DNA of 63,765 nt, the filler included, from Folioceros fuciformis (taxonomy: Eukaryota): the NCBI GenBank assembly GCA_049999805.1. It is 3 parts of 3 records of this genome, joined end to end, with 100 filler letters (N's around TTAATTAATTAA, not from the genome) between each part and the next. Parts side by side here need not be neighbours in the genome. Positions count along the whole stretch, not along the records: positions 55,558 to 63,765 come from JBNGIO010006133.1; 2 more parts are not named here. One strand, 5' to 3'. Position numbers and translations under genes: made by a program. Of the stretch, positions 7,081 to 63,765 are shown piece after piece (positions within the stretch are counted from its first letter, which is position 1; every line of letters starts with the position of its first letter). The notes beneath the pieces were generated by a model, which saw only the letters and a list, made by a program, of their open reading frames with translations, was not told the origin of the DNA and did not search any database.

Positions 7081-8408
7081 CCAGATTCCTTGGCCCTAGT
7101 TGCGTAATCGAAATCCAACTTGATTCCTTGATCCACTGAATCAGAACTCAAACTACACACACGTCACTCCCTCGTCTCCACCTGCAGCTGACGCCTGCCG
7201 ATCACCGATTGCTCCATCCGGGCCTTCACATCCACTTACGTTGCCTCCTTCACCGGCACCACCTCCTGATGAGTAATCCTGCCTGACGCCGGAATACAGA
7301 GCTTGCACTCTGTGCTTTGCCCTGGCACTGGAGATTTCACACACTTTGCCTCCGTAAATACAACTCTTCTCCGGGACCGTCCGCGTGCAGCCTCCACTCC
7401 TCAACGTCTCAGCGTGACCTGAATTGACCTCCAATACGCGCTCCTCAGGAGGCTACCCTCCGAGCTGGATTCATCCCTCATTATTCCCTCTGTGCAGGGG
7501 AAATCATCCCACCACCCATTACCGCCCATTACCGCCCATCGTCACGATCGCAACCAGTCTCCCCGCCAGCAGCATACAGTACATCCAATGACCACGGGCC
7601 AATGGGGGAATGTGTGTCGTCAAATTGAGAGATGGGCGCAGCTTTCTCAAGCAGGATGCGTGGTTCTGGGAAGCGACCATCGATGCGTAACGTTCCCGCT
7701 TCACAAAAGTTTTATAAAGTCGACCCAATACACGTGCTCCGTTGTGACACTTTGTAGAGCTTCCTCCGGCTGCGGAACACAGACCTGGTCCCACACGGAG
7801 ACTTCGGACACGGAGACTTCGGACATGGAATCTGGAGTCTTGGGCCCATATCCGACTGGGACTCTTCTCAGAAGTTTACTTACTTCAGAGACTGGATTCC
7901 TCTGATATGTCTGGATGTTCGGACAAGGAAGCAAACTGTCCCGAATCACAACAGATTTATAACAGACGAGCCAGTACACGTGCAGACCTTTCCCCACGCA
8001 GAGATTTAGTATGTACTGTATTTGATGCAGATACTATTCCTGGGGAAAACGATTGTGCACCATTTTCGAATCGGTGATGGGAAGTCATAACCTTGGCCAT
8101 ATCCCACTGGGACCCTGCAGTTCCTCCACAATCACAACTCACAATCAAACTGTTGTCCCGCTAGTTCCTCTCACAGCTCAGCTATACCAGCTTGGAGAGC
8201 ACGCCGACGAGGTATTGCGCACTTACGAAGAATGCATACACGGCCTCAGTCTAACAAAATTGAGGGGCCCTCGAGCCAATAGGCAATGGATACCTCACCC
8301 ATGGCCTCAGAGATCAACTGCAATACACAGATTCAGATCTGGGCCGGGACAGAGGGCTGGGAAAGGAAAAGCTCTACATAATGCCAGTGTTTCACATTTC
8401 GGGGCGCA

Positions 8409-11267: not shown

Positions 11268-11925
11268 ATGGTGAGCTTTGTCAAATCAAGGGCACAAGGA
11301 TGGAGTGCTTTGCTTACTGCTGCTGTGTTTTTCGGAGTTAGCGGAAGTCCAGGCATAGGAACTTACCGGTGTCACTGGTTTTCAAATTTTAGGCCATGTT
11401 CATCAGAGTGAAGCGGAAGAAGACGACGTATTTTGTGCATTGTGATCCGTCAGAGACAGTCCTCGACATCAAGGAAAAGTTGCAGGTGCTCACTGACAAC
11501 CACGTGGACCGTCAACGGCTCGTTCTGATCTCGGCTCAGCAATCTCACGTTTTGGATGACTCAAAAACCCTTGCTGATCAAAAGGTTTGCGTTGCAGCTT
11601 ATTGTGTTAGAGGCCTGTGATTCGTCTTTCGTGGCCGATGATTAGTGCTAGGGAGATGTGTGATTTGTGTGTCCCTGGAGGATTGTGTCCATGACAGCCT
11701 CGCCGGACATGTGCAGGTTGAAAATGATGCTGTCGTGGCATTGACGTTGAAACTCCCAGGTATGTGCGCAAAACTGGGGAAGTCTGAGGTTTTTGCTTCC
11801 ACAGACAGCGCACAATCTTTCTCAAGTTGTTTACTTTGTGGTGATGTGCAGACAGCAATAACTGGGAGGCAGTGATGATAGACAAACCATCCAAACAGCA
11901 GAACGTCTATTCCATGGACGACTGA
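11268..11925 (+). CDS. Ubiquitin-like Elongin-B-like protein, 4 exons
   Basis: ATG|GT micro-exon at 11268, then AMFIRVKRKKTTYFVHCDPSETVLDIKEKL...LDDSKTLADQK|VENDAVVALTLK; last exon ends in TGA at 11925. Confidence 0.85.
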
Positions 11926-29880: not shown

Positions 29881-29980
29881 NNNNNNNNNNNNNNNNNNNN
29901 NNNNNNNNNNNNNNNNNNNNNNNNTTAATTAATTAANNNNNNNNNNNNNNNNNNNNNNNNNNNNNNNNNNNNNNNNNNNN
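29881..29980. other. Artificial contig-join spacer
   Basis: N run with a central TTAATTAATTAA (stops in all six frames). Confidence 0.95.
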
Positions 29981-29988
29981 GTATTAGT

Positions 29989-32900
29989 TTGTGCCCATCG
30001 CTACCCTCTTCCCAAATGCACCTACCTCACCGACGCCGGCAACGCACCCGCCTTCTAAGCTTTGTATATGTGGCGTTCGGGGATTTCTTCGATGGATTAC
30101 CACGGCCGGTGGAGAAGGAGGAAAGAAAGCGGTGGAGGCAAGTGCGGCAGGAGGTGTTGATTGCCGTTGGCAAATGCACCTCCCTCAGGCAACTGGAAGG
30201 CTTGCCTCATGACATCTACGAGGGGCGAGAAGATGACGATGAGGAAGCACTGTTGGGAGGTTTAGAGTCGATTGCCAACTACTCGGCCTTAGAAACGTTG
30301 AATTTGGTAGACTGCACCGCTGTGTGGGGGAGTGAAGTTACATGTGCTGCCCTTTCGGGCTTCCTCCGCTCCAGTCCCAGCATCCGCCATTTGGTGTTGG
30401 CGCGTACAGGTCTGAAGCTAGACGGGCTGGGTCAATTGGTGCGGGGGTTGGAGGCGAATCTCCACCGCCCTCTCCGCTGGCTGGATCTGTCAGGGAACGA
30501 GGTGGGAGGTGGTGATGGCGGTGCAGCAGGAGGTGAGGGCGGGGCTTTGCAGTTAGCGAAGCTGCTTCAGGCCACCGTGTGCCCCAACTTGCAAAATTTG
30601 TCGAAGAACTCGTCGGTGCGCACATTGCACGTGGGAGGGGAGAAAGACAAAGGGGTAGGGTTACTGCTTTGGACGGGACTGGCGAGGGAGAGGGACAGTT
30701 GCCCCACCCACACTGGTTTGGCGGAGGAGAATGGAGATGTCACCGACCTTACCATCTACTGGATGAGCGAAGAAGATGTGGACGACGTGAATGTCGTGTT
30801 GAGCACTAATCCTGTGCTGGAAGAGTTGTGTCTGTGGAATGCCTCCTGTGCTGTAGCAAATATAGGGTTGACGGTGAAAGAGAATACCAACATCAAGATG
30901 CTATCGTTACAACATGGAAAGTACAGCCAAAACTTCATCAGAATATTCCTACAATCATTGCAGGTCAACGCAGCAGTGAAAACGCTCTTCCTACATGTAA
31001 CGGAAATACTGGACTTGCATGTGAAAAGCAACGACCGGATATCGGACCTCGATGTGGTAAGCAGCGACCGGCTATTGGATCTCGATGTGGAAAGCAACGA
31101 CGACCGGGTATCGGACCTCGATGTGGAAAGCAGCGACGAGGTGTTGGACCTCGGTGTGGAAAGCAGCGACCAAGTATGGGACCTTAATGTGGACAGCAGC
31201 GACAAGGTATCGGACCACGATGTGGAAAGCAGCGACCGGCTATCGGACCTCGATGTGGAAAGCAGCGACCGGCTATCATACCTCAATGTGGAAAGTAACG
31301 ATGACCGGGTATCGGACCTCGATGTGGAAAGCAGCGACGACCGGGTATCGTACCTCGGTGTGGAAAGCAGCAACGAGGTATCGGACCTCAGTGTGGAAAG
31401 CAGCAACCAGGTATTGGACCTCAGTGTGGAAAGCAGCGACCAGGTATCGGACCTCGATGTGGAAAGCAGCAACCGGGTATTGGAATTCTTGTACATCCAG
31501 CTGATGGACGTGTTGGATAAAAATATATCCTTGGAAAGCATTTACCCTAGACCTTCCACCTGGAAAGGTGGCATTGATAGAGGAAAAATTACAGCGAAAT
31601 AGAAGCATAGCAACTTATCTTCCTCAATTCCAAGCACAGAATTTCCAATTTGCCACTCCAACCACTGGTAGAATTTTCCTTCTCGGTCCACCAGCTGCAG
31701 GTAATACTGCTTTTTCTTTTTTTAACGTTATTGAATGTGCCAGTCACCACGTAACTAAGTTGTGCTTGAACATTTTTTCATGAAGGAAAAACAACTTTGC
31801 GAAAAAAACATATGCAAATTCCATGATTCTCAAGCAAAATCAACGGACTGGAGCATGCGGATCAAGAAGTTTATATGGCAGCCATGGAGGAAAACTAAAG
31901 GCATAGTAGTAGAGTCCCTCCTCCATCTAGAAATGGGATTGCAAGTAAGCTTTTGGGATTTAGCTGGCTAAGATGAGTATCGCATTCTGCATGACTATCT
32001 CTTCCCTAATATCCATCAAGCTTGCTTATTTTTATTTGTGTTTAGTCCTTTTCAATTAATAAAGCTTTTAAATAGTAATGAAATTAGCACACAATTTCGA
32101 AACAATTTAGTTATTGGTTAGTTTATTAGTTATTTTCGAAACAATTTAGTTATTGGAAGTTTATTTCATCTAATACGCAAGAAAGGAGGAAGAAGAAACC
32201 AAAAGTATTTGTAATCATCACTCATTTAGATAAGTTTGAAAAAGAGAAAAAGACCATTCGTAATAATTTACACGAAGAATTTAACAAATTAAAAAATATA
32301 TATATAATGAACTTATTAGTTTTCGGATGGAAATTCAAATGATAAATACTCTTTCTACAATAGACATAGAAAATATATGGTCATATACCTCAAAAACACT
32401 AAAAATACTTGTGTGAGAAAGCAATTAAAGTGCCAAAAGTGTGTGAGAAGGTAAGTAGTGCCTTGATAAAGTGGACACTACATAACCAATCTCAACCCTT
32501 CATGACCCAAGCTGAGTTTACAAGCTTTTGTATGTCCACGTGTGAAGAATTAACTAGCTTAGAGTGGGTTGACCAAATCAACATTATAAAGGCTATTTCA
32601 TCTTATCTAAATGATAGTGGAAATATTCTTTAATTTAAAAAGTTTAATATCAGAATAGTAAATCCAAATTGGATGACTGAGCACTTTTTAGGTCAACTTA
32701 TACAAACACGTAGTCCTTTACTCAAAGAAACTAATGACCAAGGATTTATTGCACGAAACCATCTCGAACATGTCCTTGATTCTATATTTGTTAATGATGC
32801 TAAGTACACTAACTTGAAAACCCAAGACTTGGTGAATATTATGGAGGAGTTAGAATTGTGTTACAAAGCCACTTTAGAAGATGGTCAAGTACAAGGCTTC

Positions 32901-41134: not shown

Positions 41135-42790
41135 GGCAGGGATAACGTCAAAGGTTGGATGCGATATCATGCACAGCCCAAACCATCGGTTCAATAGAAG
41201 TAGATTCTAAAAACGAATCGGACATATTACAACGGCAGAATGTCACTACCTTTCCCTCTCCGTATGTTTTCCCTTACAGCAAGTGTAAAAAACAGCAACC
41301 ATGCCTATTGGGTGAAGAAGGCACACGACACAGGTCAACAACCATGAAAATGGACAAAGACCTTGGCTGGAATCCACATCCACATCAGAATCCATATCCT
41401 TGTACACCCGATAAGCTTGACTAGTGCAGGAGCGCGCCCATCCCACAAGAAATGATTCAAAAGGAACAAGAAAGAAAGGAAGCAAGAAGAGCAATAGAAT
41501 AGTTGTACCATCCTGATGCCAACCAGATTTCAAGCACACAAAAGGTTTGTGGAGCAAGCATTGACGACGCTCCAACCTAGAGAATGAATTCCAGGTACGT
41601 GGAGGAGGCAGCGTGAATAGGCTCCACCTCAACCTCAATAGGTTGCTTCCCATTAATAGGCCAAGGGATGGCATTCACTAGTGCGCCTTGAAAATGATGC
41701 CATGAAATGATTCCCACACTGGAGCATGACTAATTGCATACCATGTATGGAATATAGATCAGAGATCAAGTGAAGTTTTGTGAAATGTTTCAAGTATTGT
41801 ATAGGGAAACAAGTTTTCCAACTAGTCTTCGTAAGATTGACATTCCATACACAAAAAGATCTACCGCAGTTCACCAGCTAAGGAACCAAAAGATAGATAG
41901 TGTAGATACTAAATAACCAACTATTTGCTATACATTGTTGCAATTTATGTGCCACCCATTATGGCAATTTATTTGCTATCTATTGTTGCAACAATTGCAA
42001 ATTATGTCCAATGGGTCCATCTTGCATGCAACATTGGGTCTACATAGTCTAGCCCTTATTGCTAATATTGGGTTGGACTCCAGGCAATCTAGGTCTGGAC
42101 CTTGCCCTTAACATTTTGTCCTCACCACCGCTTGCAATTAATATTGAGTCCACAATCTTGACTTGTTGGTAAAATTAGATCCACAAACTATACACTTTAA
42201 ATTTGCCAATAAAATGACGTTCTCGCTATAACCTTGCCAATGAAAAAAGTTGGGTCCATACCAAAGATATGAGTTGTGTCCACATTATCCCTTACTAGGT
42301 ATTATAAGTTGGGTCCTTGTCAGAAACATTAGGGCGTGTCATTCTTATTGGTTTGTCTTGTATTTGGTCGAGACATGCCATCGTACGATACTTACGTATT
42401 AGATCAAATACGTAAGCATTTGGGTTGCGTCGAATCCACTAGGGGGTATCCTAATAGATTTCGCTAATACGTAATACTTCGTGAACTTATATGCCACCCG
42501 TCATTCCATCCCCATGTGACCAGGGTGTGACCCACCCGTATAAATGCCGTCCTTCTCTCCCTCCAAATTGCCCTTACTTCTCATTGCTTATCGCCCTTCT
42601 CTCCCTCCAAATCGCTCTTACTTCTCATTGCCCTCGCTCTCCCTCCAAATTGCTCTTGCTTCTCATCGCCCTTGCTCTTCCTCCAAATCTCTCTGCTTGG
42701 ATCCTTGTAGGCTGCCCACCTTCCAATGCATCACTGAATGGCTTGCCAAGGGTTTGGTGTTGATTACTCTGAGTGTTGTAGGCCATTACT

Positions 42791-44100
42791 ATGCCATATC
42801 GCTCACTGCGGAAGCAATTTTTATTGGACTTGGAGAAAGTTATGGCCATTACAAGTTTGCTCAACGACACTTCTGAGGAGGAGGATTCGTCTGATGAGGA
42901 AGAAACTCTCTCTGATTTATATATACTTGCTCAAGCATCTCGATTTGTGAATGTGAAAGGCAAACGTCATCACCCCTTGTACTTGTGGTCATCCACACTT
43001 TCTAACATGCATCCAGATGAGTTCAGACAATTGCTACGTACTTCACATCAGGGTTTCAAGTCGCTCTGCACCCTCCTTAGCAACAACCAAGTTTTCTTTA
43101 ACAACTCCAATTGTTCTCAGAGTCAAGTTGCTTGGCAATTGGGAGTTGCTTTATGTAGATTTGGAGCTGCAGGAAATGGAGCAAGCATTGGGAAAATATG
43201 TCAACTATTTCACATTGGCCATGGCACCGTTGTAAAATGGACCCAACGTGTGATCACTGCTTTGCTTGATATGCGCCATGAGTGGATGAAATGGCCAGAT
43301 GAGAGTAGACGTTCTGAGATTAGTGAAGTGATGTGCCTAGAGGGTTTTGAGGGATGTGTTGGCTTCATTGACGGGACAACTTTGCCGTTATCACAAAAGT
43401 CTGGTATTGGCGGCGAGCAATATTTTGATAGGAAACGAAGGTATGCCTTTAACATTTCACAAACATCAAAGACATCCAACATGCTTGATTTATGATTCCA
43501 ATACTATGTTTTGTGTGTACAGGTATTCTATGAACCTCCAAGTTGTCTGTGATGTAGACAAAAGAATCACTTCTCTACATGTTGGTTGTCCTGGCTCTAA
43601 TCATGATGCATTTGTGTTTCAAAGAATGAGTATTTATAAGGATCCAAGAGCTCATTTTTCGGTAGGGCAATACCTTCTAGGAGATTCCGCATATCCAGTG
43701 TCACATTTTTGTATTCCATCATATCAAGCTCCTACCTCTAGGGAGAATATAGAGTTCATTTATTGCTTATCTAAAAGCACAGTTCGAAATGAGCATTGCA
43801 TTGGCATATTGAAGTCCAGGTGGGGATCTCTGCGAGAGCTACGACGCCAAATCAAATGTGAAGAGGATGTTAGACAAATATCTAGGTGGGTTGTTGCATG
43901 TTGCCTCCTACACAACATGTTGGCCAACCTTGGGGATGCTTGGAATGAGTTTTTATCATGAGAAAGATCCTGTGTTGAATGCACAGGATGACCTGACACA
44001 AGTTTATGGAAATACAGCTGCAAGCTTTCATGAAGTTTTAAAGCCCAAAGTACTAGCTAGAAATTATGAGAGAGGTGTATTGCCGTTAACTCATGTATGA
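42791..44100 (+). CDS. Harbinger (HARBI1-like) DDE transposase
   Basis: GFIDGT, YSMNLQVVCD, GSNHD, LLGDSAY, RNEHCIGILKSRW, CCLLHN; one intron at about 43442-43522; probable frameshift near 43955. Confidence 0.9.
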
Positions 44101-44122: not shown

Positions 44123-45427
44123 CTACAGACTCTTATCATTGCCAAAATTCTTTTCCAACTTCTGAATGATGTCCTTCATTTCTTCTCGATCCAACTTTGC
44201 ATCAAGAACGGACTTCCACAGCTCCATTCGCTTTATCTCAAGCTTGGTTTTGTTGTCCTCTTTGGCAATTTCCAATTTCAAATGTCTCTCTTCCCGTTGT
44301 GCAGCTTGTTGTGATTCTCTCTCCTCTCTCATTGTAGTTTGTTGCACTTGGAATCTTTCTTTCTCCCATGCCAACTTCTCTGTCTCTGTTGCTTGTCGCA
44401 CTATCATTACAGGAAATATTATTATATGACAAGAATGTTGTTGGTTTGCCATTGAAAACAAAGTGCTTCGAAGCCACAACTTACTTTGTGCTTTGGCCTT
44501 GGTAGCCATATGGAAAGAGTGTGCAAAAGAGTTGGTGCTTTTGTTATCCCGTGCACTTGCACCTACATCAAGTTTGGCCGGTGCCCTCTTACTGTCCACT
44601 TTTCTAGCATCAGCCTTCACTTTGTGTGAACTGGTGGATGATGGAGAGGGCAAACTCTTTCGCTTAGTCCCAACTTTAAGTCCCTGTAGTTCACTGTCAC
44701 CAAGTTGCATGGAAGCACCAATGATGGTATCATCGTTAGCTAGAGAATCAAGGTCTACTACTTCATGATCCCTATACATACTATCCAAATCCTCTGTAGC
44801 ATTAAGCATACTAGTGAAGCATTCTACACCTCTTGTTGTATCATCAAGTTGTGAGGGCATAGTGAAACCCTGTTGGATGCCCTCTAGGTTCTGCTCAAGA
44901 TTATCTGCATTAACCTCAGCTTCATGGAGGATTGGCATGTCTTCATTCAAGGAACGATGCAGCTGACCTCCTGATGTGCCTTCAACCCCCTGATCGTATT
45001 CAAAATGAGGCTCAATATTTGCCCTGCTACCAAACAGTTTGTCGATTCTATAAAAAAAAGGGCATAACATCTCAAACTTTCGTTCAATGGTGTGAATCCC
45101 TTTAGCTCTATCAGATTCATCCAAACCAAAACCGGTAGTGTTGAGGAGGGCCTTTGTCTTTGTGTATCTCTGTTTGTAAGTCTTGAACCTCTCCCGCATC
45201 GCCTTACCATCTAGCATAAGGCGAACTTTGCTAGCTAGAGTGACATGATCAGCTAGTTTTTTGTATCCTACATTAGCTGGAACACATGTCATCCCAATGG
45301 AAGTCTTACCTTCCTCTCCCCAAAGCATGCTTCTATTAGCTGGATTTTCTAACCATGTCACAATTATAGCATAATCTGCATGGTTGAGATGCGCCTTTTT
45401 GTTAATAATTGATGCATCATTAGGCAT
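44123..45427 (-). CDS. Harbinger ORF1 Myb/trihelix-like DNA-binding protein
   Basis: IVTWLENPAN...YKKLADHV...RERFKTYKQRY...TGFG...CPFFYRIDKLFG plus a C-terminal coiled coil; convergent with the transposase inside the TIRs. Confidence 0.8.
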   Translation of the reverse strand: MPNDASIINKKAHLNHADYAIIVTWLENPANRSMLWGEEGKTSIGMTCVPANVGYKKLADHVTLASKVRLMLDGKAMRERFKTYKQRYTKTKALLNTTGFGLDESDRAKGIHTIERKFEMLCPFFYRIDKLFGSRANIEPHFEYDQGVEGTSGGQLHRSLNEDMPILHEAEVNADNLEQNLEGIQQGFTMPSQLDDTTRGVECFTSMLNATEDLDSMYRDHEVVDLDSLANDDTIIGASMQLGDSELQGLKVGTKRKSLPSPSSTSSHKVKADARKVDSKRAPAKLDVGASARDNKSTNSFAHSFHMATKAKAQSKLWLRSTLFSMANQQHSCHIIIFPVMIVRQATETEKLAWEKERFQVQQTTMREERESQQAAQREERHLKLEIAKEDNKTKLEIKRMELWKSVLDAKLDREEMKDIIQKLEKNFGNDKSL

Positions 45428-45733
45428 ACCCTTATTCCAGGTTTGTTTTTTGGCAAGAGGCTAAGTTAACGGGTCTAGCAAACTGTCCATACTCGTATTG
45501 CAATCTTGCCCACAGAGAGTCCTGCTTGGTACTTGCACAAAGAGAGAGGCCACAACACCAGATTGAGGCATGGCAAGTAGAAGGCACTCTCCATGTACTT
45601 GTTAATTCGCCACTTACCACAAAATAGCTCCCCAGCTCTAAGAAAGGCACATACAACAGCACCTGGATCACGCGCTGGAGGAGCTCATCATGAGCTTGGC
45701 GGACTGCAACACAGGATTTCAACGTAGGCGGGT

Positions 45734-49357: not shown

Positions 49358-50648
49358 TCATCGGCGATATAAACCTGAACCTTGTAACATCTTGCTGTAA
49401 TCCGCCAGGACAGGAGACTTCTTCACCAAGTCCCAGATCCGAGCAGCATTCCTTAGCCAATCTCGCTCGCTCATGATTTTAGCAAATGGTCGTCTTGGCA
49501 TAGATAGCACCTACGAGGCATGAGTCAGGAAACCATGCAAACAACTTCCAGCGAACAAAAAAAAAAGTAGCTGACTGAAGCCGTACCCGATCTCGGAGCT
49601 GCCACATCATGGATGAGAAGCTTTCGTACTGCCTTCTCGTGCAATCTTCGACTCCTTTGAGAGGGAGCACAAAGAAATTAACTCCGCCAGCAGGAACCGG
49701 CCGGCCCGCAATCAACATATTATCATCCTGCACAGCTGCCTTGGAGTGCCTACCATGACTTGATGCGGGAAAGTGCGGGGCAATGTAGCTCACCGCTCCG
49801 TTCTTTCTAAACGCTGGCAGCGAAAATAACTTGCATAGCGTCCTTTCTAATCGCTGGAGTTCAGGCAGCGAGACCTCCTCATCCCTCAGCTTGGAATGCA
49901 CAAAAATCGTATCTGCGAAATAGTCTGCACTTTCGTCTAGCGTGCCATCAGCACTCTCAGGCTCAACTGCCCCCGCAGGCAGCGACGGGTCTGGAATTCC
50001 TTGCTTCAGCATCTCCACCGTCTGCATCAGGCGCAGCAACCTGACGTCCTGCAGCCCCTCCGTGACTAACAACACCACATGGCAAACTGAGCAAAGAAAC
50101 ATCCCGAGCTGCAATGACATGAGCTCCAGCGCCTGTTCCCCAGACACAACCTCACCCGGTAGCACGGGCACCGCCGACGATCCGTCCGGCCGCATCAGAT
50201 CCGTCAGGACGGATGCCGAGAACAGCGGCTGAGTGTCCAGCAAGATGAGCCGCTCCGCAGACACCCGCAGTTCCATCCCCATGCTACAATGCCTGGCAGT
50301 GGCTTGATTCTCCTCAGACTGCACTGCAAACGGCGGCAAAACGGAGGCAGGCGCGGTGGCGTCGAATCCGTAGAGCTGGTTCATGATGGTCGACTTCCCC
50401 ACTCCCGGCGCTCCAAGCACTCCGATTACCGTAAAATCGGTGTTGTCGGAGACGAGCGACATCGATCGCTCCAGCACGAACTCCCACGCATCAGACAGCA
50501 GATTGAGCGAACCATGCGGCAAGCGTGCGCGAGCTGTTCCGTCGTCCTCCCTTTCTCGCATCAGCTTCAAGCCCCCATCGATGCGCGGGGCGGCCGGCTT
50601 TGCCAGCAGGATCTTCGGCCCTACACCGCCTCCTGCCATAGCCACCAT
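49358..50648 (-). CDS. SMG9: Nonsense-mediated decay factor SMG9, 2 exons
   Basis: GPKILLAKP, DFTVIGVLGAPGVGKSTIMN, ILLDTQPLFSAS, FLCSVCHV; exon 2 VLSMPRRPF...SERDWLRNAARIWDLVKKS. Confidence 0.92.
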
Positions 50649-50840
50649 CGCCGAGCTCAACGCGTAGGTGCAGGGCTGCACGTTAAAGTAGTACGTCCCG
50701 AAGGCCTCTTGTCCTAGGGTTTCTTTTTATGAACTCAAACTCGGAGCATTCAGAGGACTCTGCTTGTAACTCTCCTGCTTGCGCATGCGCCTTACCCGTG
50801 GATTCGCTGTAGAGAGCCCTGGACGTGAGATTCTGCAACC

Positions 50841-55457: not shown

Positions 55458-55557
55458 NNNNNNNNNNNNNNNNNNNNNNNNNNNNNNNNNNNNNNNNNNN
55501 NTTAATTAATTAANNNNNNNNNNNNNNNNNNNNNNNNNNNNNNNNNNNNNNNNNNNN
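55458..55557. other. Artificial contig-join spacer
   Basis: N run with a central TTAATTAATTAA. Confidence 0.95.
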
Positions 55558-55662
55558 TGGAGGCCAGCAACAGCCAGTAGAAGCCTGAAGGTACTGTGGG
55601 TACAACTGAAGCAATGTGTGGTGTCCCAGCGAGAGTCACTTCCCTAGGCCTGGTGTTGTCAA

Positions 55663-58023
55663 TTGCAGCACAGCACCTCACTGTTTTTGCCAAGCACCAG
55701 CTGTAGGTGTAACAGGGGTGCATGGGGTATGCAACCAGATCAGCAAGAGGCCAGCCTACGTTACCGATTGAGGAGTCGAGACATTCCTATCAGGGTATCA
55801 CCGGAGCGTGCACAACGGAGGAGAAGATGGGCAGCTCGACGACGCCAACTTGCAAGTGAAGAAGACTTGAGAGAGGACTTGGAACTAGCAACATCCGTTG
55901 GGCAACCCAGCTGGTCACCCCTCTTAGACTTGGGCAAGATTGTTGTGCTAACTAGCTCAAATTTAGGGGGTCAGCTAGTTTGTGACGAGGAACCTGAACA
56001 ACAAGGGTCTCTCTATTCACAGCAATCATTTGTGAGGTCACAGCAGACACATCCAGGGTTTGCTGGGTCTGTCCTTGGTGTAGGGCAAGGCCTGGGTGAC
56101 TTGTCTGAAGGGTCAGACACCATGGAGGGTGGTTCATCAGGGTTTAGGCCTGAGAAATTCTCAGGCAGACCAAGCACCCAATCCTTAAGGGACTTCCGCT
56201 TGTTCATCAATGCAGTCATCAGCAGGGTGAAGTTCAAACATGGTGCTGCCTACAACCACCAGTACATGTTTGAACAGTTGTCCAGCTACTTAGGAGATGA
56301 GGCATTGGATTTGTACGAGGCTCACCAGGCTGAGCTATCGGGCACAATTGCCACTCCTAACCCAGCCCATCATTCGGCTCTACAGTTGGCATATAATGCC
56401 AAACTGGCAGCAGCCATTAATGACCATCAGGTTGAGATTGTAGCCAAGACCATCTCCGCCACCACACCACCTCCAACGGTGGTGAATTTGACACTAGCAG
56501 AGCGGGCTACTGCCACAGCTGGTGTGCAAGAGTTTCTACACACTTGCAAGTACCTGAACCCAGTGGAGGAGTTCCTAGCTATTTTAGAGAGGGCATTCCC
56601 ACTGAAGACCCCAGAGAAAATTGCAGAACTTGCTGCCTTTGCTCGCAAAAAGGGGGAGACAGTCCAGATGTGCTTCAGGAGGCTACAGAAATTGAGGGAA
56701 GGTACAGGGATGTTAACAAATCAGGAAGCAGCGCAAAGGTTTTTGACTGCACTTGAAGGAGACCCGTTGTTTCATTTCCAGCTGGTTACATCCTTGGTGG
56801 ACAAATATGGGGACAAGTATACTTTGGAGCAAGTGCATGAAGAAGCTGAGAAGAAGGAGGTAGCCTTTTCGGCCTATGCCTCTCGGCATTCCAAGGCCTT
56901 CACGCACTACCAGTCCATGTTCTCTAGCAAGGGGGCAGCTAACACAGGTGCAGGAGCCAAGGCTGGTCAGATTAAGCCAGTTAAGGTAGCTTCAGCAGCA
57001 GCTCCAACGGCAGCAGTGGTAGCCATGTGTAACCATTGTGGCAGCCCTGAGCACATGTCCCCTGCATGCAAGTGTCCTCCGGAGGGACTCTACTGCACCC
57101 ATTGCCAGAAGAATGGACACGTGGTTACTGTGTGCTTCCAAAAGCACCCCGAACGAAGATACCAGAAGATTGGTACCGTAGGGTTTGCAGGAGCCACAAT
57201 TGCTAGTGTGGAAGCAGGAGGAACTAGGAGCGTTGTTGGGTTGTCCCGCAGTAAGCAGCAGCGTGACAAGGCCAAGGCTAAGGCAGCCGCCACTGCTGAC
57301 AAGGTCAGCTCCCTTGAGGCTTCCATGGCTGCCATGACAGCTCAACTTGGAGTCTTGACAGCCAACCTGTCCAGCATCACCGGCTCTTCCAAACCAGCCA
57401 ATGTGGTGAAGTTGGTACCAGGACCAGAGGATGAGGATTATGGCCCAGCACACCAAGTATGTATGGTTGACAGAATTGGTGAGAGCAGCATGGAGGTGGA
57501 GTTGCCAGCCACATGGGTGGGGCAGAATTTACAGGTGGTCATGGGAACAACAGCACCTGCCTTAGGGCCTATCACCAGGAATCGAGGGGCTAGGGCTACC
57601 ATGCCAAAGTCCTTTGCCCCGCTGCCACCGGGGTCTGCAATTCTGGTACGAGGCCAGGAGCACTCAACGCTGCGTGTGGAACAGCTGCCCACGAGTAGAA
57701 CACCTGGCCATAGCATGCCAACACCAGAGCATGTGTATCTCTTACCCCAAACCACCACAGTCACACAACTGGCTGCCAAGCTAACTCAGGTGCCAGTTTT
57801 CACACTGCAGGACATGGGCATCACGACCAGCAGGCTGAAGGAAGTTCTTCAAACTGCTGAAGCCACGGCTGCATCTGCTGACCCTAGCCTGGGTACAGCG
57901 TACACTTCACAATGGGTGCTGCCAATAGCGATGTCACACTCTACAGGTGGGCAGACAACACCAAGTCACTGCAATGGCTCTTACACTGTACAGCTAGTTG
58001 AGGGAGTTGACAGCCAACCGTGA
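55663..58023 (+). CDS. gag: Gag-like polyprotein with two CCHC zinc knuckles
   Basis: FRPEKFSG, RKKGETVQMCFRRL, CNHCGSPEHMSPAC, CTHCQKNGHVVTVC; ends in a TGA in frame with pol. Confidence 0.8.
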   Translation: MQHSTSLFLPSTSCRCNRGAWGMQPDQQEASLRYRLRSRDIPIRVSPERAQRRRRWAARRRQLASEEDLREDLELATSVGQPSWSPLLDLGKIVVLTSSNLGGQLVCDEEPEQQGSLYSQQSFVRSQQTHPGFAGSVLGVGQGLGDLSEGSDTMEGGSSGFRPEKFSGRPSTQSLRDFRLFINAVISRVKFKHGAAYNHQYMFEQLSSYLGDEALDLYEAHQAELSGTIATPNPAHHSALQLAYNAKLAAAINDHQVEIVAKTISATTPPPTVVNLTLAERATATAGVQEFLHTCKYLNPVEEFLAILERAFPLKTPEKIAELAAFARKKGETVQMCFRRLQKLREGTGMLTNQEAAQRFLTALEGDPLFHFQLVTSLVDKYGDKYTLEQVHEEAEKKEVAFSAYASRHSKAFTHYQSMFSSKGAANTGAGAKAGQIKPVKVASAAAPTAAVVAMCNHCGSPEHMSPACKCPPEGLYCTHCQKNGHVVTVCFQKHPERRYQKIGTVGFAGATIASVEAGGTRSVVGLSRSKQQRDKAKAKAAATADKVSSLEASMAAMTAQLGVLTANLSSITGSSKPANVVKLVPGPEDEDYGPAHQVCMVDRIGESSMEVELPATWVGQNLQVVMGTTAPALGPITRNRGARATMPKSFAPLPPGSAILVRGQEHSTLRVEQLPTSRTPGHSMPTPEHVYLLPQTTTVTQLAAKLTQVPVFTLQDMGITTSRLKEVLQTAEATAASADPSLGTAYTSQWVLPIAMSHSTGGQTTPSHCNGSYTVQLVEGVDSQP

Positions 58024-58440
58024 GTGCAGTCCACCAATCGACTGCAAGCTCGTGTCAGCAATGCAGTTGTTGACAATCGTTGTGGGCACGTCACAATCAA
58101 TGGGTATGCACCCAGAGTGGTGTTGCTAGACACGGGAGCCCAACCAGTACTCGTTGGGAAGATTCTAGCTGCAAGGTTGCATCTTCAGGGTGATGCATTG
58201 CATACCTCGCCTTGGAACATCAGGACGGCATCCGGGGCTATTGAACCAGTCTGTGGTGAGACAGTCCAACCCCTGGACATCACCTTGAACTCGGGCACGC
58301 CAGATGCCATGACATTGTCCTTGCCCTGCCTGGTAACCACAGCCACCAACTATGATTTGCTGTTGGGGCAAGAGTTCCTCTTTCCACCAGGAGTTGGTGT
58401 GGATAACTGGACTGAGCAAGCCTTCTATAGGCCTGACTGG
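58024..58440 (+). CDS. Retropepsin-like aspartic protease domain of pol
   Basis: VLLDTGA, IRTASG, YDLLLGQEFL. Confidence 0.88.
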
Positions 58441-58809
58441 AAGCAAGGAGGTCGTCGCATTGCACATCTGCCATTAGATTTGCATGGCCAGGTGGAGGTT
58501 GATGTAGCCACTTTGGTGAAAAGCCCGGCTGTAGTTGGTATCAAAAGTAGCAATGTGGTGGAGCTTGTCCAAGACACATACCAAGTGGACAAGCATCTAG
58601 AGACCAATGTTGCAGAGGCCCAAGTGAGGTGTACTAGTTTGCAGCAAGCTCTAGTTCAGCCTGACTGTCCAGAGCAGGCAAAGGCATTGCTGACCAAGGC
58701 ACAAGAGCAGGTCAGCAAGGTGCAACAATTGTTGGAGGCCGGGACCCTATCATCTTGTCCCACATCTTATGTGGACAATACTGTCATCATATGGGCACCG
58801 GCTGCGCTA

Positions 58810-59745
58810 GCCCTTACAGTCGTTGAACTGTTTGGTGGTATTTGTACCGGGTTAGAAGCTTTGCTCTTGACAGGTTTGAGCATTCAAAGGTACCTTTACT
58901 GTGACAAAGACCCCGTTGCCAGGCAAATTGCTGCATTTCGGCTGCAGGGTCTACAACATCGTTTCCCACAGCAATTGTCAGCTGAGGCTTTGGCTAATAC
59001 ATTCACGTCCTTACCTCAGGACGTCCAGTATATACAGCAGGGCCACATCCAAGCCTTGGGCCCCATCTACATGGTCATAGCTGGCTGGGAATGCCAAGGA
59101 TTCTCTCAAGCTGGGGTAGGTGCAGGGTTGACAGATCCACGTTCTGGTCTGTTTAGAGATCTCCAACAAATCTTGGCATGGGCACAAGATAGTAACTCTC
59201 AATGTGCATACCTGCTCGAGAACATACCAACCCAGTTTGATACCCGGCCACAGGTGCAGCAGGATATGGCCATTGTGCGACATTTTGCAGGGCCACCATT
59301 CCTCATGGATGCTGTGCAGGTGGGTAGCTATGCCCACAGGCTTCGTAACTACTGGACCAATTTGGTCCATGTCTCCGTGTTGGACTTGGCTCTCTGGAAC
59401 ACTAGCAGGGATCCAGGGCTGCAACTTTGTACTGTATTGGAGAACTACCACCAGCCACGACCTGTGGTGGCCAGTGAGAAAGCCCCTTGGTTCAAGACCA
59501 ACATTCCAGGTCAGCCAAGGCAGACGTTGCCCACGCTGGTCAGCTTTCCGGGTTCATTTGCTTACAGAGGAGAAGGACCTGGCTTATTATTGAATACTGA
59601 AACGCAACGGTGGGAAGAACCAACAGTTGAGGAGCGAGAGCGACTCATGGGTTTTCAAACCCATAGTACAGCGGCCCCCACTGTCACCAATCGGCAGCGC
59701 AAGGGCACTCTAGGACGAGCCATGGACCTCCATGCCATCACATGG
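58810..59745 (+). CDS. C5 cytosine DNA methyltransferase domain embedded in pol
   Basis: Motif I VELFGGICTG, II YCDKD, III DVQYI, IV AGWECQGFS, V DPRSGLF, VI LLENI, VIII AHRLRNYW, IX ERERLMGF, X LGRAMD. Confidence 0.88.
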
Positions 59746-59912
59746 TTGGTGAGTTTGTGCCTTGCCTTTCAGCTGCACACTCAGGTCACTCCCATGCTAC
59801 TCCCAGGCTTGTTTGCTAGCATCTGCCATGGAGATGCTGTTCACCTCCTATTCCCAGGATACACACAGCTGCCTTTCTGGCTAGATGCTGGGGGGGGGGG
59901 GAGTACGCAGTA

Positions 59913-62900
59913 TTGGCATCACGTACTGTTTACTCAGCATCTGATCAAGCCAAGGCAGAAAAGGAGGATCCAGGAGCTACACCCAAGCTGTCTGCTGTTA
60001 ATTTCCCGTGGAAAATGGGCTCAGAACTCAGTCTGAAGCAACAGGACCGCATTCGTAACTTGCTGCTTAGGTACAGGGACTGTTTTGCCTTTTCCATGCA
60101 TGAGCTCAAGAGGTGCAATGTCACAACCTTTCGCATCAACCTTACCACCCAAGAGCCTGTATACAGGCGACGGTATAGGTTGAGCAAGACGGAATGGGAC
60201 ATGGTGGATGCAAGATGCAAGGAGCTGTATGAGGCGAACCTAATACGTCCCTCTAACAGTGACTACGCTGCTGCCACTGTGATGCCACCCAAAAAGGACA
60301 GTCAGGGTTTGTGGACTGAGAAGAGGATGTGTGGCGACTATAGGCCCATCAATGCAGTAACTACCCAGGATCGGTACCCAATGCCAACACCAGAGGAGAT
60401 CTTTGACCGTCTTGGACAGTCTATGTTCTTCTCCACGCTGGACCTGCGACAAGGGTTTAACCAGGTCCCAGTGGCAGCTGAAGATATCAAGAAGACAGCC
60501 TTCCATGGTTCTCAACAGCTATGGGAATGGCTAGTGATGCCCTTTGGATTCAAGAATGCGCCAGTGACCTTTCAGCGCATCATGGACATAGTACTAGCTG
60601 GAGCCGGCTATCTCATGTGCTACATTGATGATGTGCTAGTCCACAGCATGGACTTCAAGGATCATTTGGTACACCTGGAAGACCTGTTTATAAGATTACG
60701 GAAGGCACAACTCACGTGCCACCCAGCCAAGTGTGAGTTTGGCATGAGCACTGTGGCGTATTTGGGTCACAGAATTGTCCCCAATGGTGTCACCCCACAT
60801 GCTGCCAAGGTTCAGGCAATTATGCAAGTTAAGGAACCGACCACCGTATCAGCCCTGCGTTCATTTCTAGGGTTATGCAATTACTATCGAGTAAACATAC
60901 CCAATTTCAGCAAGATTGCCAAGCCTCTTAATGATCTGTTGCGCAAGGATGTAGAGTGGACATGGGCAGAGCAGGCACAACAAGCTTTTGACACCTTAAA
61001 GCTGGAGCTAACAGTTGCACCAATGTTGGCCAGACCCAATTTTAACAAGCCCTTTGTAGTTCACACAAATTGGAGTAGTCTAGGGCTAGGGGCTGTGCTG
61101 GCTCAACAGGATGAAGCAGGTTGTGAGCGTGTGGTTGCTTACGCCTCGCGTAGCAACAATCGAGCTGAAGCCAACTATAGCAGCTACGAGGGTGAATGCC
61201 TCGCTGCTGTGTGGGCAGTGTGCCACTTCAGACCATATTTATATGGTCAGAAGTTCACACTCGTGATAGACCATCAACCACTCAAGTGGCTGATGACCAA
61301 CACCAAGCTCAGTGGCAAACTCGCACGTTGGGCCATGATCCTTCAAGATTACGAATTCCCGGTTGAACATCGGCTAGGAGTGAAGCACCAGAATGCTGAT
61401 ACCTTGTCACGAAATCCTGACAGCAGTTGTGTGGATACCACTGGCGCTTGCCAAGATGAAGAGTACAGCACAATGCTTGCCGTATCGGCTCTGGTGGCCA
61501 TGACTTGCTTGGGACAGGTGCCTGTAGGTGCAGCTCAGCAATCCTCCAAGGATATTTGGGAGGATCCAGCTACCCTTCAGTATGTGCAGACAGGTAGAGA
61601 GGACCCCACTTGGACCGCGGCCACAAGGGAACGAGTTCACCAACGGGCTACCAAGTATTGTTGGCGGGACGGACATCTCATCCGTCAACAGGCTCAAGGA
61701 GTGGAGCGATTGGTACCCCCACCAGCAGATCGTGCTGCCCTCATCAAAAGGGTGCATGATGACATGGGTCATTTTGGGGTCAAACGCACCTACAGCCTGT
61801 TGACTCCCTATTTCTACTGGAATCGAATGCATGAACAAGTGAAGGAACGAGTAGCCTGTTGCGAGCAATGCGACCGTGTCAAGGCTTCCTTCACCATGCA
61901 GCACCCAGAGCTGCACCCTTTGCCCATCATGGGTTTATTCTTCAGATGGTCATGCGACCTGATGGGTGAGCTCCCGTAGTCTCCACGAGGCAACCTGTAT
62001 GCGATGATCATGATGGAACACTTCAGCAAGTGGGTGGAGGTAGTGGCCCTGCCAGACAAGACCTCTAGGAGTACCTCACAAGCCTTCCTACAATGTGTGC
62101 TCAGTAGGTTTGGTGGCTGCGCAGAGTGTCTCACAGATCAGGGTTCTGAGTTTCGAGGAGAATTCCAGGATCTAATGGATGCAGCCCTTATTGACCACAG
62201 GAGAACTAGCCGGGACCACCCGCAGGCTGATGGCTTAGCCGAGCGCATGGTCCAGACTATGAAGAAGGGGCATCGCAAGCTGTGTCTCCGACAACCCAAA
62301 ACAGATTGGGATCTCATGCTTCCATATATTGCAATGGGCTACCGCATGAGCAAGCATGCTGCCCTTGCCCATTTTTCCCCTTACTTCCTCTTGTTTGGCA
62401 GAGAACCAATTCCACCTAGTTCTATAGCCAAACAAATGCTAGAAGTTGTCAAGCTGGATGATGCAGCTACATGGGCACGTGTGATAGGGAACAGGGCAGC
62501 CTTGTTCAAATAGGCCATGCCCATGACCATGGCTAACTTGCACATTGCCCAGCATAGGGATACCCTTCGTTATGCACACACCAGGGGAGGCAGTTTTAGG
62601 CCCAAGCTTAGGAAGTTCCAGGTAGGAGACTTTGTTTACCTCCAGAGGTAGACCTCAGATACCCTGGACACTTCGAGCAGTCGGCATGTGTTACGGATTC
62701 AGGAGGTCAAGCCTAATGGCATCCTGGTATTGCAAGGCTCAAATGGTCAGATCACCACTGACCACACCAAGAATTGCGCACCTTGCCACTTGCCCAATCT
62801 TGATCCTTCTATTGTCACAGCATATTGGATTCCACCAGCGGACTACCCTTGTCAGGTTTGTCAACGCATAGATGATGCTGACCTCATGTTACTTTGTGAT

Positions 62901-63023
62901 GGCTGCAATGGGGGTTTCCACCTTTTCTACTTACAGCCACCACTTACCCATGTACCGGAGCAACTTTGGTATTGTCCCAAGTGCCAACCGAACGCAGCAG
63001 GTGTGACCAGCCCAGAAGTGTAG
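59913..63023 (+). pseudogene. pol: pol RT-RNaseH-integrase-PHD with three in-frame stops
   Basis: RMCGDYRPIN, LDLRQGF, MPFG, YIDD; VAYASR, DHQPL, NADTLSR; HDDMGH..CEQC, TDQGSEF, DGLAER; TAG at 61977, 62511 and 62649; PHD at 62850-62984. Confidence 0.92.
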
Positions 63024-63070
63024 CTCTTGTCGTGCTCTTCATGCTTTCAACCCGTCCATCAGCTGGGGGG

Positions 63071-63675
63071 GGAAGGCATGGACAATCTTTTTGTTCTCTT
63101 TTTCTTAGTGCACAAGACATTAGCCTTGCAGTTGATGGACTGAACTGAAGTGCTCACAACAGCTGATGCCAAGAGCACGACAGCTGTCGTGAAATTGTGG
63201 TAAAAATGGACTTATAGTAGAGCGTCATGGTGAACGTGATAGTTTAGTGGAATTCAGTTGATTAGATAATAGGTGATTAAACTAACTCAACCTAAATTAC
63301 GTAAATGGCTAAAATACTAGCCATGGCTACTTGCCCACTAGAAGCACGTGGGCTCATACAGCCCATGGGAAACGGCTTGGAGGGGCACCAAACAAAGAAA
63401 CCGAACACGGCGAGGAAAAAGGCAGTTGGTGCAGATTGAGGGTGTAAGGGAGATGGTGGCATCCCGCTAGTGACTGACCAACTCTGGGCAGCCCGACGAG
63501 GGCAGTCCCCTTTTTGCAGCTTTACGACACGGAGTGAGCTATGGCGCATGTGAGCAGCCTAACATCATGAAGGCATGGACAATCTTTTTGTTCTCTTTTT
63601 CTTAGTGCACAAGACATTAGCCTTGCAGCTGATGGACTGAACTGAAGTGCTCACAACAGCTGATGCCGGGAGCAA
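63071..63675. repeat. About 105-bp direct repeat pair downstream of pol
   Basis: GAAGGCATGGACAATCTTTTTG...ACAACAGCTGATGCC at about 63072 and 63570. Confidence 0.9.
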
Positions 63676-63765
63676 GACAGGAGACGCGCTCTCCTCAGAC
63701 CTTGAAGACGCCATGTTCTTTGAGGTGTTGAGCCTGTGCCCTATGAGCCTAGCCGCTATAAGGCA

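Follow-up and report, generated by a model that had tools for sequence, protein, structure and literature searches.

A decayed Ty3/Gypsy-type retrotransposon carrying a DNMT3-type methyltransferase in the Folioceros fuciformis assembly, and its likely membership of the Gypsy-DNMT3 kind

As a rule, DNA methylation is directed at transposons, and an element that carries a writer enzyme inverts this relation. Here we ask what such an element is, and what its enzyme may do, at one locus of the Folioceros fuciformis assembly GCA_049999805.1. The window, i.e., the whole stretch of DNA that was analyzed, measures 63,765 nt and consists of three parts with 100 letters of filler between one and the next. 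The element lies on the plus strand of the part taken from JBNGIO010006133.1 (window positions 55,558 to 63,765); the scaffold edge cuts it off at 55558, and its 3′ end is at 63679. An initial annotation had placed, within a Gypsy-type pol, a stop-free C5 methyltransferase domain after the protease and before the reverse transcriptase (RT), with its motifs in canonical order and the catalytic Cys, Glu, and RxR retained, and the features listed below bear this out. Our best explanation, a decayed and scaffold-edge-truncated copy of a multicopy Ty3/Gypsy-type Gypsy-DNMT3 element, to which we attach a proposed mechanism, is very probably right; that the element is of the Gypsy-DNMT3 kind, taken by itself, we hold with slightly greater confidence still. 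The features, in window coordinates, are as follows.

55458-55557, linker (N44 + TTAATTAATTAA + N44), directly before the element's scaffold piece
55558-55647, plus strand, leader; the scaffold piece begins within the element
55648-58023, plus strand, gag-like open reading frame (ORF), ending in TGA 58021-58023
57028-57069 and 57094-57135, plus strand, two gag CCHC zinc knuckles (CX2CX4HX4C)
58090-58380 (aa 23-119), plus strand, retroviral-type aspartyl protease (PF13975, E 5e-7; PF13650, E 7.5e-7)
58129-58137, plus strand, protease DTG motif
58807-59793, plus strand, DNMT3-type C5 cytosine methyltransferase domain, stop-free, with motifs I, II, IV, VI, VIII, IX, and X in canonical order
59890-59901, plus strand, run of 12 G, at which a 2-nt frameshift separates the RT frame from that of the DNMT
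60288-60776, plus strand, reverse transcriptase (PF00078, E 2.1e-28)
60621-60632, plus strand, RT motif YIDD
60963-61352, plus strand, RNase H (PF17917, E 1.2e-37; PF17919, E 4.5e-34)
61716-61886, plus strand, integrase HHCC zinc domain (PF17921, E 5.6e-17; HHCC at 61755-61871)
61953-62510, plus strand, integrase D,D,E catalytic core (PF00665, E 1.2e-10; CDLMG, TDQGSEF, GLAER)
62511-62651, plus strand, stretch between two in-frame TAG stops (62511-62513 and 62649-62651)
62850-62984, plus strand, PHD finger at the integrase C terminus (PF00628, E 6.8e-11)
63065-63076, plus strand, purine tract G8AAGG, directly 5′ of repeat B1 and 42 nt past the final stop (63021-63023)
63072-63182, plus strand, repeat B1, 96% identical to 63569-63680
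63176-63191, no strand assigned, B1/A2 junction CACGACA-GC-TGTCGTG, a perfect 16-nt palindrome
63185-63568, plus strand, repeat A2, with a piece absent at 63429 in the window copy
63569-63679, plus strand, repeat B2, ending in CAAGACA, the element's 3′ end
63680-63765, no strand assigned, DNA inferred to flank the element, as other copies diverge at 63679

The coding part has the composition expected of a Ty3/Gypsy element. The gag-like ORF, for which Pfam returned no match, carries the CCHC knuckles and resembles the gag of the relatives P0281, L001, and L003. It is followed by protease, RT, RNase H, and integrase in the Ty3/Gypsy order, with the DTG, YxDD, HHCC, and D,D,E motifs of each and with the DNMT domain between protease and RT. 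Protease and methyltransferase share, in this order, an ORF of 670 aa without a stop (58024-60036, plus strand). The coding part is bounded by split direct repeats instead of two identical long terminal repeats. An identity as a DIRS element was rejected, since PF17921 and PF00665 are both matched and a recombinase match is absent.

The methyltransferase motifs start at 58831 (FGGICTG), 58897 ((Y)CDKD), 59083 (GWECQ), 59218 (ENI), 59335 (HRLR), 59641 (RLMGF), and 59710 (LGRAM), and the window copy retains the catalytic residues of motifs IV (Cys), VI (Glu-Asn), and VIII (RxR). This canonical order led us to reject a DRM identity, as DRM enzymes have a circularly permuted order with motifs VI-X before I-V. 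The search with PF00145 that the initial annotation proposed gave a divided answer: the window copy falls just short (20.1 bits versus the gathering cutoff of 22; E 4.7e-4; aa 334-385 only), whereas 13 of the 15 relatives scanned pass (26.1-45.5 bits), the other two, P0013 and P0015, having no match. Despite this near miss, three further lines identify the domain as a DNMT. A phmmer search of the PDB returned 29 distinct sequences at E≤1, every one a DNMT3A, DNMT3B, or DNMT3C (best, DNMT3A, at 1.1e-9). The AlphaFold model of the domain (pLDDT 93.7, pTM 0.92) has as its best Foldseek match the DNMT3A-DNMT3L structure 6f57_D (E 3.6e-18, TMt 0.83), and its best fold matches are DNA-bound DNMT3A/B. 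Finally, the family search gave 250 cluster representatives at E≤1e-30 (1777 at E≤1e-3). DNMT3-type enzymes act on DNA, as opposed to the DNMT2 type, which acts on RNA.

The catalytic domain of cellular DNMT3A/3B/3C is thus the best match in sequence and fold, with its motifs likewise in canonical order and its target-recognition region likewise short. Identity is about 21%, however, and the element's domain has no PWWP or ADD. Cellular DNMT3 is a stand-alone gene with N-terminal readers (PWWP/ADD, or a DUF in plants), while the domain studied here sits inside the gag-pol frame of a retroelement polyprotein, the only histone-reader-like module of which is the PHD finger after the integrase. 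A transposon insertion into a host DNMT3 gene was rejected as an explanation, because the frame is continuous in sister copies. A further difference is that the residue preceding the catalytic Cys is Glu and not the usual Pro. Among 127 aligned elements Glu is the commonest state at this position (79, versus 38 with Pro), and all 127 keep the motif IV Cys, the motif VI Glu-Asn, the motif VIII RxR, and the Gly of motifs IX and X.

Most relatives, too, have a PHD finger at the C terminus. The best PDB matches of the window's finger are KDM5D, Lid, WSTF, BAZ2B, KDM5A/B, UHRF1, and CHD4, and we take the fingers nearest to it (KDM5, BAZ2, UHRF1, CHD4, AIRE type) to be readers of unmodified H3K4. 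The arrangement is reminiscent of chromoviruses, in which a chromatin reader is likewise fused to the integrase C terminus, presumably steering integration, although the reader there is a chromodomain and here a PHD finger.

Split direct repeats in the order A-coding-B-A-B frame the element, and its outer ends are inverted (TG...CA). A plain repeat search of the window finds a 112-nt pair only, and the split-repeat reading derives from the relatives L001 and L008, both complete (A1-coding-B1-A2-B2) and without a B copy ahead of A1. The window holds B1, A2, and B2. The scaffold edge cuts off the 5′ part, including A1 and about 1.1 kb of leader, and A1 is known only through a contig from X2, one of three public runs (X1, X2, and X3) that come from three studies and are labelled with the same organism as the window. 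This contig extends 1138 nt further upstream of 55558 and then enters a copy of 63430-63566. In X1 and X2, contigs have corresponding loose ends at 63428 and 63430, and in four X1 contigs the sequence right after 63679 is unlike that of the window (agreement 0.55). The B1/A2 palindrome adjoins the two inverted ends of the element; the homologous junction reads CACGACA-AC-TGTCATG in L001 and L008, and L001 has a G9 tract at the position matching the window's purine tract. Neither L001 nor L008 has an obvious primer-binding site after A1, and scans with Rfam (gathering thresholds) and for tRNAs over the whole window gave zero matches, hence no primer-binding site or lineage marker there.

The window copy makes nothing itself. 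It has four in-frame stops (TGA 58021-58023 and TAG 61977-61979, 62511-62513, and 62649-62651), one of which, at 61977-61979, interrupts the integrase catalytic core, as well as the frameshift in the G run, at least three private amino acid changes in the DNMT domain, and, in the PHD finger, TAC (Tyr, 62928) at a position where a zinc-binding Cys is expected. The initial annotation ended its stretch at 59901, the last G of that run, where the frame shifts into that of RT. Sister copies lack these lesions in part: contigs of X1, X2, and X3 have two G fewer at 59890 and no frameshift, and at the stops at 58021, 61977, and 62511 other copies carry a different first base, so that these three are read through. 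In the sister copies the domain, which is nonrearranged, lies in a Pol ORF that is continuous across 58021 and 59890. Sister contigs at 90-100% likeness number 265 in X1 and 207 in X3, and bridge 58540-59027 and 59484-60044; one 9251-nt contig of X2, a run that may be RNA-derived, matches the element at 98.8%, which bears neither way on expression, and none of the runs listed as containing the element is marked as RNA. Sister copies without the domain, which the initial annotation had named as a finding that would overturn it, did not appear: no joint skipping the DNMT domain was seen among the X1 and X3 contigs. The decay itself is biased, with 21 of 31 listed private C>T/G>A changes in CHG context versus a background of 22% (p 9e-8), as expected from plant-type CHG methylation.

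The element is not a one-off, since green algae have a large family of such elements, which is also annotated, though unnamed, in the liverwort Calypogeia fissa. P0387, a liverwort protein, shares 43% of its residues with the window element along 502 aa of protease and DNMT, and the closest named relative lies on liverwort contigs of 66.6 and 14.8 Mb. The closest relatives (L001, L003, L005, L008, P0282, and P0284) have the same seven-domain order. In the 254 relatives examined, two separate architectures occur: the DNMT stands after RT/RNase H or directly before integrase in 185 (RT-RH-DNMT-IN) and after protease in 23 (PR-DNMT(-RT), as in the window), the remaining 46 having the DNMT alone. 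DNMT and RT domains co-diverge. In trees made of 127 elements alone, the 10 that share the order seen in the window group as a single clan with both domains (support 0.995 for DNMT and 1.0 for RT-RNase H). K. nitens proteins were absent from the family-search matches listed (the best 120 of 138, and all 69 of another listing). A metagenome scan with a single protein found no relative, while one with an alignment did.

The element very probably belongs to a kind known since 2018, when it was reported from a green alga; what is new is a copy in a land-plant-like genome. As reported in PMC5890265 (de Mendoza et al. 2018), KnitGypsy-Dnmt3 occurs in Klebsormidium nitens, and DIRS and LINE elements with DNMTs occur in Symbiodinium, which agrees with the precedent that the initial annotation had named for Klebsormidium and dinoflagellates. 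The 2018 Gypsy-DNMT3 report is restated in PMC12344493, and in the literature searched the term itself was found only in PMC5890265 and the preprint 10.64898/2026.05.21.726589. The one Gypsy case with a DNMT in that literature is from a charophyte alga, and the combination of retrotransposon, DNMT, hornwort, and Gypsy gave nothing.

Judged by its published description, KnitGypsy-Dnmt3 shares with our element the Gypsy domain set, a nonrearranged Dnmt3-type domain in the Pol ORF with key catalytic residues kept, the A-coding-B-A-B repeats of the DIRS arrangement, and a streptophyte host. It differs in that the host here is land-plant-like and not K. nitens, and in the C-terminal PHD finger, the word “PHD” being absent from the main text of PMC5890265. 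SymbioDIRS-Dnmt3, as described in the same paper, also has a DNMT3-type domain in Pol, two coexisting domain orders, and A-coding-B-A-B repeats, but uses a tyrosine recombinase, whereas the window element encodes a protease, a Gypsy-type RT-RNase H, and an integrase of the DDE class (PF00665, PF17921). The DIRS-like Ngaro/PAT elements have the same A1-coding-B1-A2-B2 plan, in which the internal B1/A2 junction equals the joined outer ends; again, a tyrosine recombinase is found there, as opposed to short inverted TG...CA ends and a DDE integrase here. The initial annotation was thus sound in structure, residues, and precedent, and had overlooked the stops and frameshift, the DNMT3 type, the PHD finger, the split repeats, and the large family.

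Intact relatives are predicted from their sequences to encode, in one long ORF, gag, protease, a DNMT3-type domain, RT, RNase H, a DDE integrase, and a PHD finger. In the mechanism that we propose, the methyltransferase would be made within Gag-Pol and would enter the particle along with RT and integrase. New double-stranded cDNA would then be methylated by the element's own DNMT, most likely at CG, after which the PHD finger may guide the integrase toward chromatin whose H3K4 is unmodified; any new copy would land premethylated and away from promoters. The cDNA-methylation step is the tentative part of this proposal, and we would stop short of calling it probable.

Less likely than that step is an active methyltransferase with another target, be it host DNA at the insertion site, the genome in trans, or RNA in the manner of DNMT2, e.g., the element's genomic RNA. 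In favor of such targets, the more frequent architecture places the DNMT next to the integrase, as would befit an enzyme working on target-site DNA; the PHD finger is similar to H3-tail readers; and PMC5890265 raises both effects on insertion-site chromatin and, for a LINE-borne DNMT, RNA methylation. An RNA target sits poorly with a sequence and fold that are DNMT3-type and not DNMT2-type, all 29 PDB matches being DNMT3 and the fold matches DNA-bound DNMT3A/B. The domain could instead be a catalytically silent, DNMT3L-like module with a structural or recruiting role, such as binding host DNMT3 or DRM or dimerizing Pol. A PC dipeptide altered by Glu in place of Pro, as seen in the window copy and most aligned elements, would fit such a module, and so would the yeast experiments of PMC5890265, in which SymbioDIRS-Dnmt3 domains brought about de novo CG methylation and the K. 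nitens Gypsy-DNMT3 domain, the sole one tested, yielded none. The authors of that work call the latter result inconclusive, and human DNMT3B was likewise inactive in the same assay. Moreover, a pseudo-enzyme would be expected to lose the Cys, Glu-Asn, RxR, and Gly residues that all 127 aligned elements retain, and we consider a silent module improbable.

It must also be asked whether the element is the host's own, or whether it represents an assembly chimera of a host DNMT3 and a Gypsy element, a one-off capture, or contaminant algal DNA. The element is alone on its scaffold piece, which is joined to the rest of the window by a linker; blastn and tblastn found no fragment of it in the two host-gene pieces, whose genes look land-plant-like; and many of its relatives are algal. 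For SMG9, considered as a marker for placing the host, the 120 matches listed include no named hornwort or alga, so that a tree of them would not separate these two kinds of host. Set against this, the same order in one frame recurs in independent contigs of three studies, the 9251-nt contig among them, and in relatives from other sources, and the DNMT and RT trees agree. The excess of changes in CHG context is what plant-type CHG methylation predicts, and the liverwort contigs that bear the closest named relative are megabases long. Contamination is therefore unlikely, and the three variants together seem to us barely credible.

Read jointly, our observations would describe a still-active DNMT3-Gypsy lineage in a land plant, probably a bryophyte-grade host. 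This lineage would belong to an old green-lineage clade in which DNMT3 and PHD travel with RT and DDE integrase, would replicate via a joined-ends intermediate, and would methylate its own cDNA, giving a presilenced, tolerated entry. As a whole this picture is speculative and we think it unlikely to hold in every part. Cellular DNMT3 joins a reader to a writer, and DNMT and PHD would restore this logic as two separate modules; the palindromic B/A junction may record replication through joined ends; and the PR-DNMT-RT order (streptophyte) and the RT-RH-DNMT-IN order (chlorophyte) could stem from a single old capture and a later relocation of the domain, or from two captures.

Such domains may be mistaken for host DNMT3 genes in annotation and thereby inflate DNMT counts. 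The hundreds of green-algal relatives, the two domain orders that co-diverge with RT, the PHD finger on the integrase, the Glu before the catalytic Cys, and the palindromic junction all offer experimental handles. If the host is indeed a land plant, the Gypsy-DNMT3 kind reaches the embryophytes, where well-developed CG, CHG, and CHH pathways and methylome tools would make its function testable.

Our comparisons show that the DNMT3-type domain of the Folioceros fuciformis Ty3/Gypsy element is part of Pol, is constrained across the family and travels with the reverse transcriptase (RT). The window consists of three scaffold pieces with linkers of 100 nt (N44 + TTAATTAATTAA + N44) between them, at 29881-29980 and 55458-55557, so adjacency across these positions is not real. 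The element occupies the greater part of the last piece, beginning at the piece edge within its leader, and includes an open frame of 670 codons at 58024-60036 (+):

55648-58020, +, gag-like ORF with two CCHC knuckles
58021, +, TGA stop after the gag-like ORF
58090-58380, +, retroviral-type aspartyl protease (PR; PF13975, E 5e-7), DTG at 58129-58137
58807-59793, +, C5 cytosine methyltransferase (DNMT) domain, second part of the 670-codon frame
59890-59901, +, run of 12 G shifting the frame by two, after the DNMT domain and before RT
60621, +, RT, YIDD
between RT and integrase HHCC, +, RNase H
between RNase H and 61977, +, integrase (IN) HHCC
61977, +, TAG stop inside the integrase core
around and after TAG 61977, before TAG 62511, +, rve core
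62511 and 62649, +, TAG stops between the rve core and the PHD finger
62850-62984, +, PHD finger
63021, +, final stop
63065-63076, +, purine tract
63072-63182, +, repeat B1
63185-63568, +, repeat A2
63569-63679, +, repeat B2

All seven C5-methyltransferase motifs named in the initial annotation are present in canonical order. The PF00145 match it had proposed as a check proved a near miss (20.1 against a curated cut-off of 22 bits, E 4.7e-4), while 13 of 15 Pfam-scanned relatives pass at 26.1-45.5 bits, the proteins P0013 and P0015 giving no match. A sequence search of the PDB returned 29 distinct matches at E<=1, every one of them DNMT3A, 3B or 3C (best E 1.1e-9), with alignments that take in motifs I, IV, VI and VIII and, more weakly, IX-X. 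The AlphaFold model of the domain (mean pLDDT 93.7, from 38 aligned sequences) has DNA-bound DNMT3A and DNMT3B as its top Foldseek matches (6f57_D, E 3.6e-18, TMt 0.83, 21% identity), and an exhaustive HMMER search matched 1777 cluster representatives at E<=1e-3, of which 250 reach E<=1e-30. Together, the PDB matches, the structural model and the HMMER family settle the C5-methyltransferase identity despite the sub-threshold PF00145 score.

The motif IV Cys, the motif VI Glu-Asn and two Arg of motif VIII are invariant in 127/127 aligned elements, as are the Gly residues in motifs IX and X. This invariance argues strongly that what is predicted to be a working active site is retained in the family. 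In 79 of the 127, Glu precedes the motif IV Cys (window 59083-59106), and in 38 Pro does; Pro-Cys is, to our knowledge, the near-universal state in C5 methyltransferases.

Using the window's own domains as queries, we examined 254 related proteins. DNMT lies behind RT/RNase H or directly ahead of integrase in 185, 23 have the order PR-DNMT, followed by RT where the protein continues, and 46 are DNMT-only pieces. Most relatives (P0003-P0384; locus L007) carry DNMT between RNase H and integrase rather than between PR and RT, including those from Haematococcus lacustris, Chlamydomonas eustigma and Monoraphidium neglectum. Trees were built from the window and 126 proteins with near-complete DNMT, RT and RNase H, the other 128 being dropped. 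The two domain orders form separate clans in the DNMT tree and in the RT tree, and the ten tips that share the window's order group as one clan in both (0.995 for DNMT, 1.0 for RT-RNase H). Because the same ten-tip clan recurs, the DNMT domain is, on these trees, co-diverged with RT and neither a recent nor a one-off capture.

Among named hosts, the window's order occurs in Closterium spp. and in the liverwort Calypogeia fissa; proteins P0387 and P0453 of the latter lie on contigs of 66.6 and 14.8 Mb. The window PR-DNMT ORF is 43% identical to P0387 over 502 residues and 45% identical to P0281 over 512. The closest relatives overall are six metagenome contigs (L001, L002, L003, L005, L006 and L008), all decayed themselves, with identities of 48-66% in RT, 65-77% in the integrase core, 56-69% in PHD and 43-49% in DNMT. 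L001, L003, L005 and L008 have the window's seven-domain order; in L002 the PR and RT matches are missing, and in L006 the PHD match.

The element is present in runs of three studies under one organism label. Short contigs on it at 90-100% likeness number 265 and 207 in two DNA runs (X1 and X3), and their three likeness classes per run (105/79/81 and 71/64/72) indicate a multicopy family. Sister copies lacking the domain, a possibility raised in the initial annotation, were sought: no contig joint skips DNMT, and both its borders are bridged (58540-59027 and 59484-60044). A single 9251-nt contig from another run (X2) spans 55558-63428 at 98.8%. In the high-depth copies, stops 58021, 61977 and 62511 have another first base than in the window, and the G run is two letters shorter, so that gag, PR, DNMT, RT and IN stand in one frame at these points. 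Among the best 40 of 144 copy differences, in which stop 62649 does not figure, 35 are coding, 27 protein-changing (three being the stops) against 8 silent, as expected from neutral decay of the window copy; three fall in the DNMT domain, all away from catalytic residues. While the copy in the window is dead, the same is not evident for the family.

Private changes of the window copy relative to the X1 majority are mostly C>T/G>A (47), with 21 in the opposite sense and 25 transversions. Taking the majority state as ancestral, and again within the best 40 of 144 differences, the window has T/A for C/G at 31 sites, of which 21 are CHG, 5 CG and 5 CHH by context, against a background of 22%, 9% and 68% among 4231 cytosines (CHG excess, p 9e-8). 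The element has a CpG observed/expected ratio of 0.36, and the two host-gene pieces have 0.65 and 0.67. This mutation pattern resembles erosion under CG and CHG methylation of the plant type.

KnitGypsy-Dnmt3 is reported in a figure legend (PMC5890265, Fig. 4) to have an A-coding-B-A-B layout of split direct repeats. The same layout occurs in L001 and L008, which read A1, leader, coding region, G-tract, B1, A2, B2, with no B ahead of A1. The window holds B1, A2 and B2, and the X2 contig carries a second copy of the A end 1138 nt upstream of 55558. The B1-A2 junction, CACGACA-GC-TGTCGTG (63176-63191), is a perfect 16-nt palindrome in which the two inverted ends of the element flank a 2-nt spacer, so that the outer ends are inverted (TG...CA); homologous junctions lie in L001 (about 8262-8277) and L008 (around 11340-11360). 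Four X1 contigs part from each other directly past the terminal CA at 63679, fixing the 3' end there and making 63680-63765 flank. In sequence, the junction resembles a circle or tandem junction retained inside an integrated copy, and a joined-ends intermediate may serve the DDE integrase in acting on split direct repeats.

At the place where chromoviruses have a chromodomain, the element has a PHD finger. The PDB sequences that it matches best are those of KDM5D, Lid, WSTF, BAZ2B, KDM5A/B, ORC1b, UHRF1, CHD4, ATXR5, PHF21A and AIRE, most of which read the H3 tail in its unmodified state (H3K4me0). The window finger has Tyr at the position of a Cys in the aligned fingers. Of the 12 relatives that keep the window's order as far as RT, a PHD match is present in only a single one other than the window itself.

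The two other pieces carry plant-type genes, namely DUF4220/DUF594 (of a family regarded as plant-specific), TIC20, a GT4 glycosyltransferase and a Harbinger transposase. Located features of these pieces are:

4335-7163, -, DUF4220 + DUF594 gene in three overlapping frames (introns or frameshifts)
42782-43961, +, Harbinger/PIF-type DDE transposase split over two frames (PF13359, E 5.7e-24)
44123-45460, -, 445-aa ORF adjoining the Harbinger transposase, with no Pfam family
49479-50726, -, SMG9-like gene, equally similar (about 48-53% identity) to ferns, lycophytes, liverworts, mosses and gymnosperms

The top match of the SMG9-like gene has 65% identity, and the best 120 of its 191 matches include no alga. 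This gene suggests a host of land-plant grade. A long ORF at 30756-31602 ends in many tandem acidic units of about nine residues (…SDLDVESSD…).

The initial annotation named a precedent in DNMT-carrying retrotransposons of dinoflagellates and Klebsormidium, and DNMT-carrying Gypsy elements are indeed in print (PMC5890265); the report, of 2018, is repeated in PMC12344493, and a 2026 preprint cites "streptophytes (Gypsy-DNMT3)" as previously described (10.64898/2026.05.21.726589). Gypsy-DNMT3 is thus already described, and the window element adds to it: the literature searched (few subscription journals, no supplements) yielded no land-plant case, no breadth in green algae, no pair of co-diverging orders, no PHD finger and no palindromic junction.

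The algal or contaminant origin considered in the initial annotation draws on the absence of a physical link between the element and the window's host genes. Several observations count against it: three studies give the element one organism label, it is multicopy, its liverwort relatives sit on contigs of chromosome size, and its decay is CHG/CG-biased. We regard an artefactual DNMT-in-Gypsy arrangement as very improbable. A silent, DNMT3L-like module is improbable too, given catalytic residues that never vary in the 127 elements. According to PMC5890265, DIRS-borne DNMT3 domains perform de novo CG methylation in yeast; the Klebsormidium nitens Gypsy domain gave no methylation there, a result from which its authors draw no conclusion, since human DNMT3B failed likewise. 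Action on host DNA or on RNA instead is rather unlikely. The reading we tentatively put forward is that DNMT would be translated within Gag-Pol and then packaged; that it methylates double-stranded cDNA before or at integration is possible, at somewhat less than an even chance. The PHD finger, for its part, may tether integrase to H3K4-unmodified chromatin.
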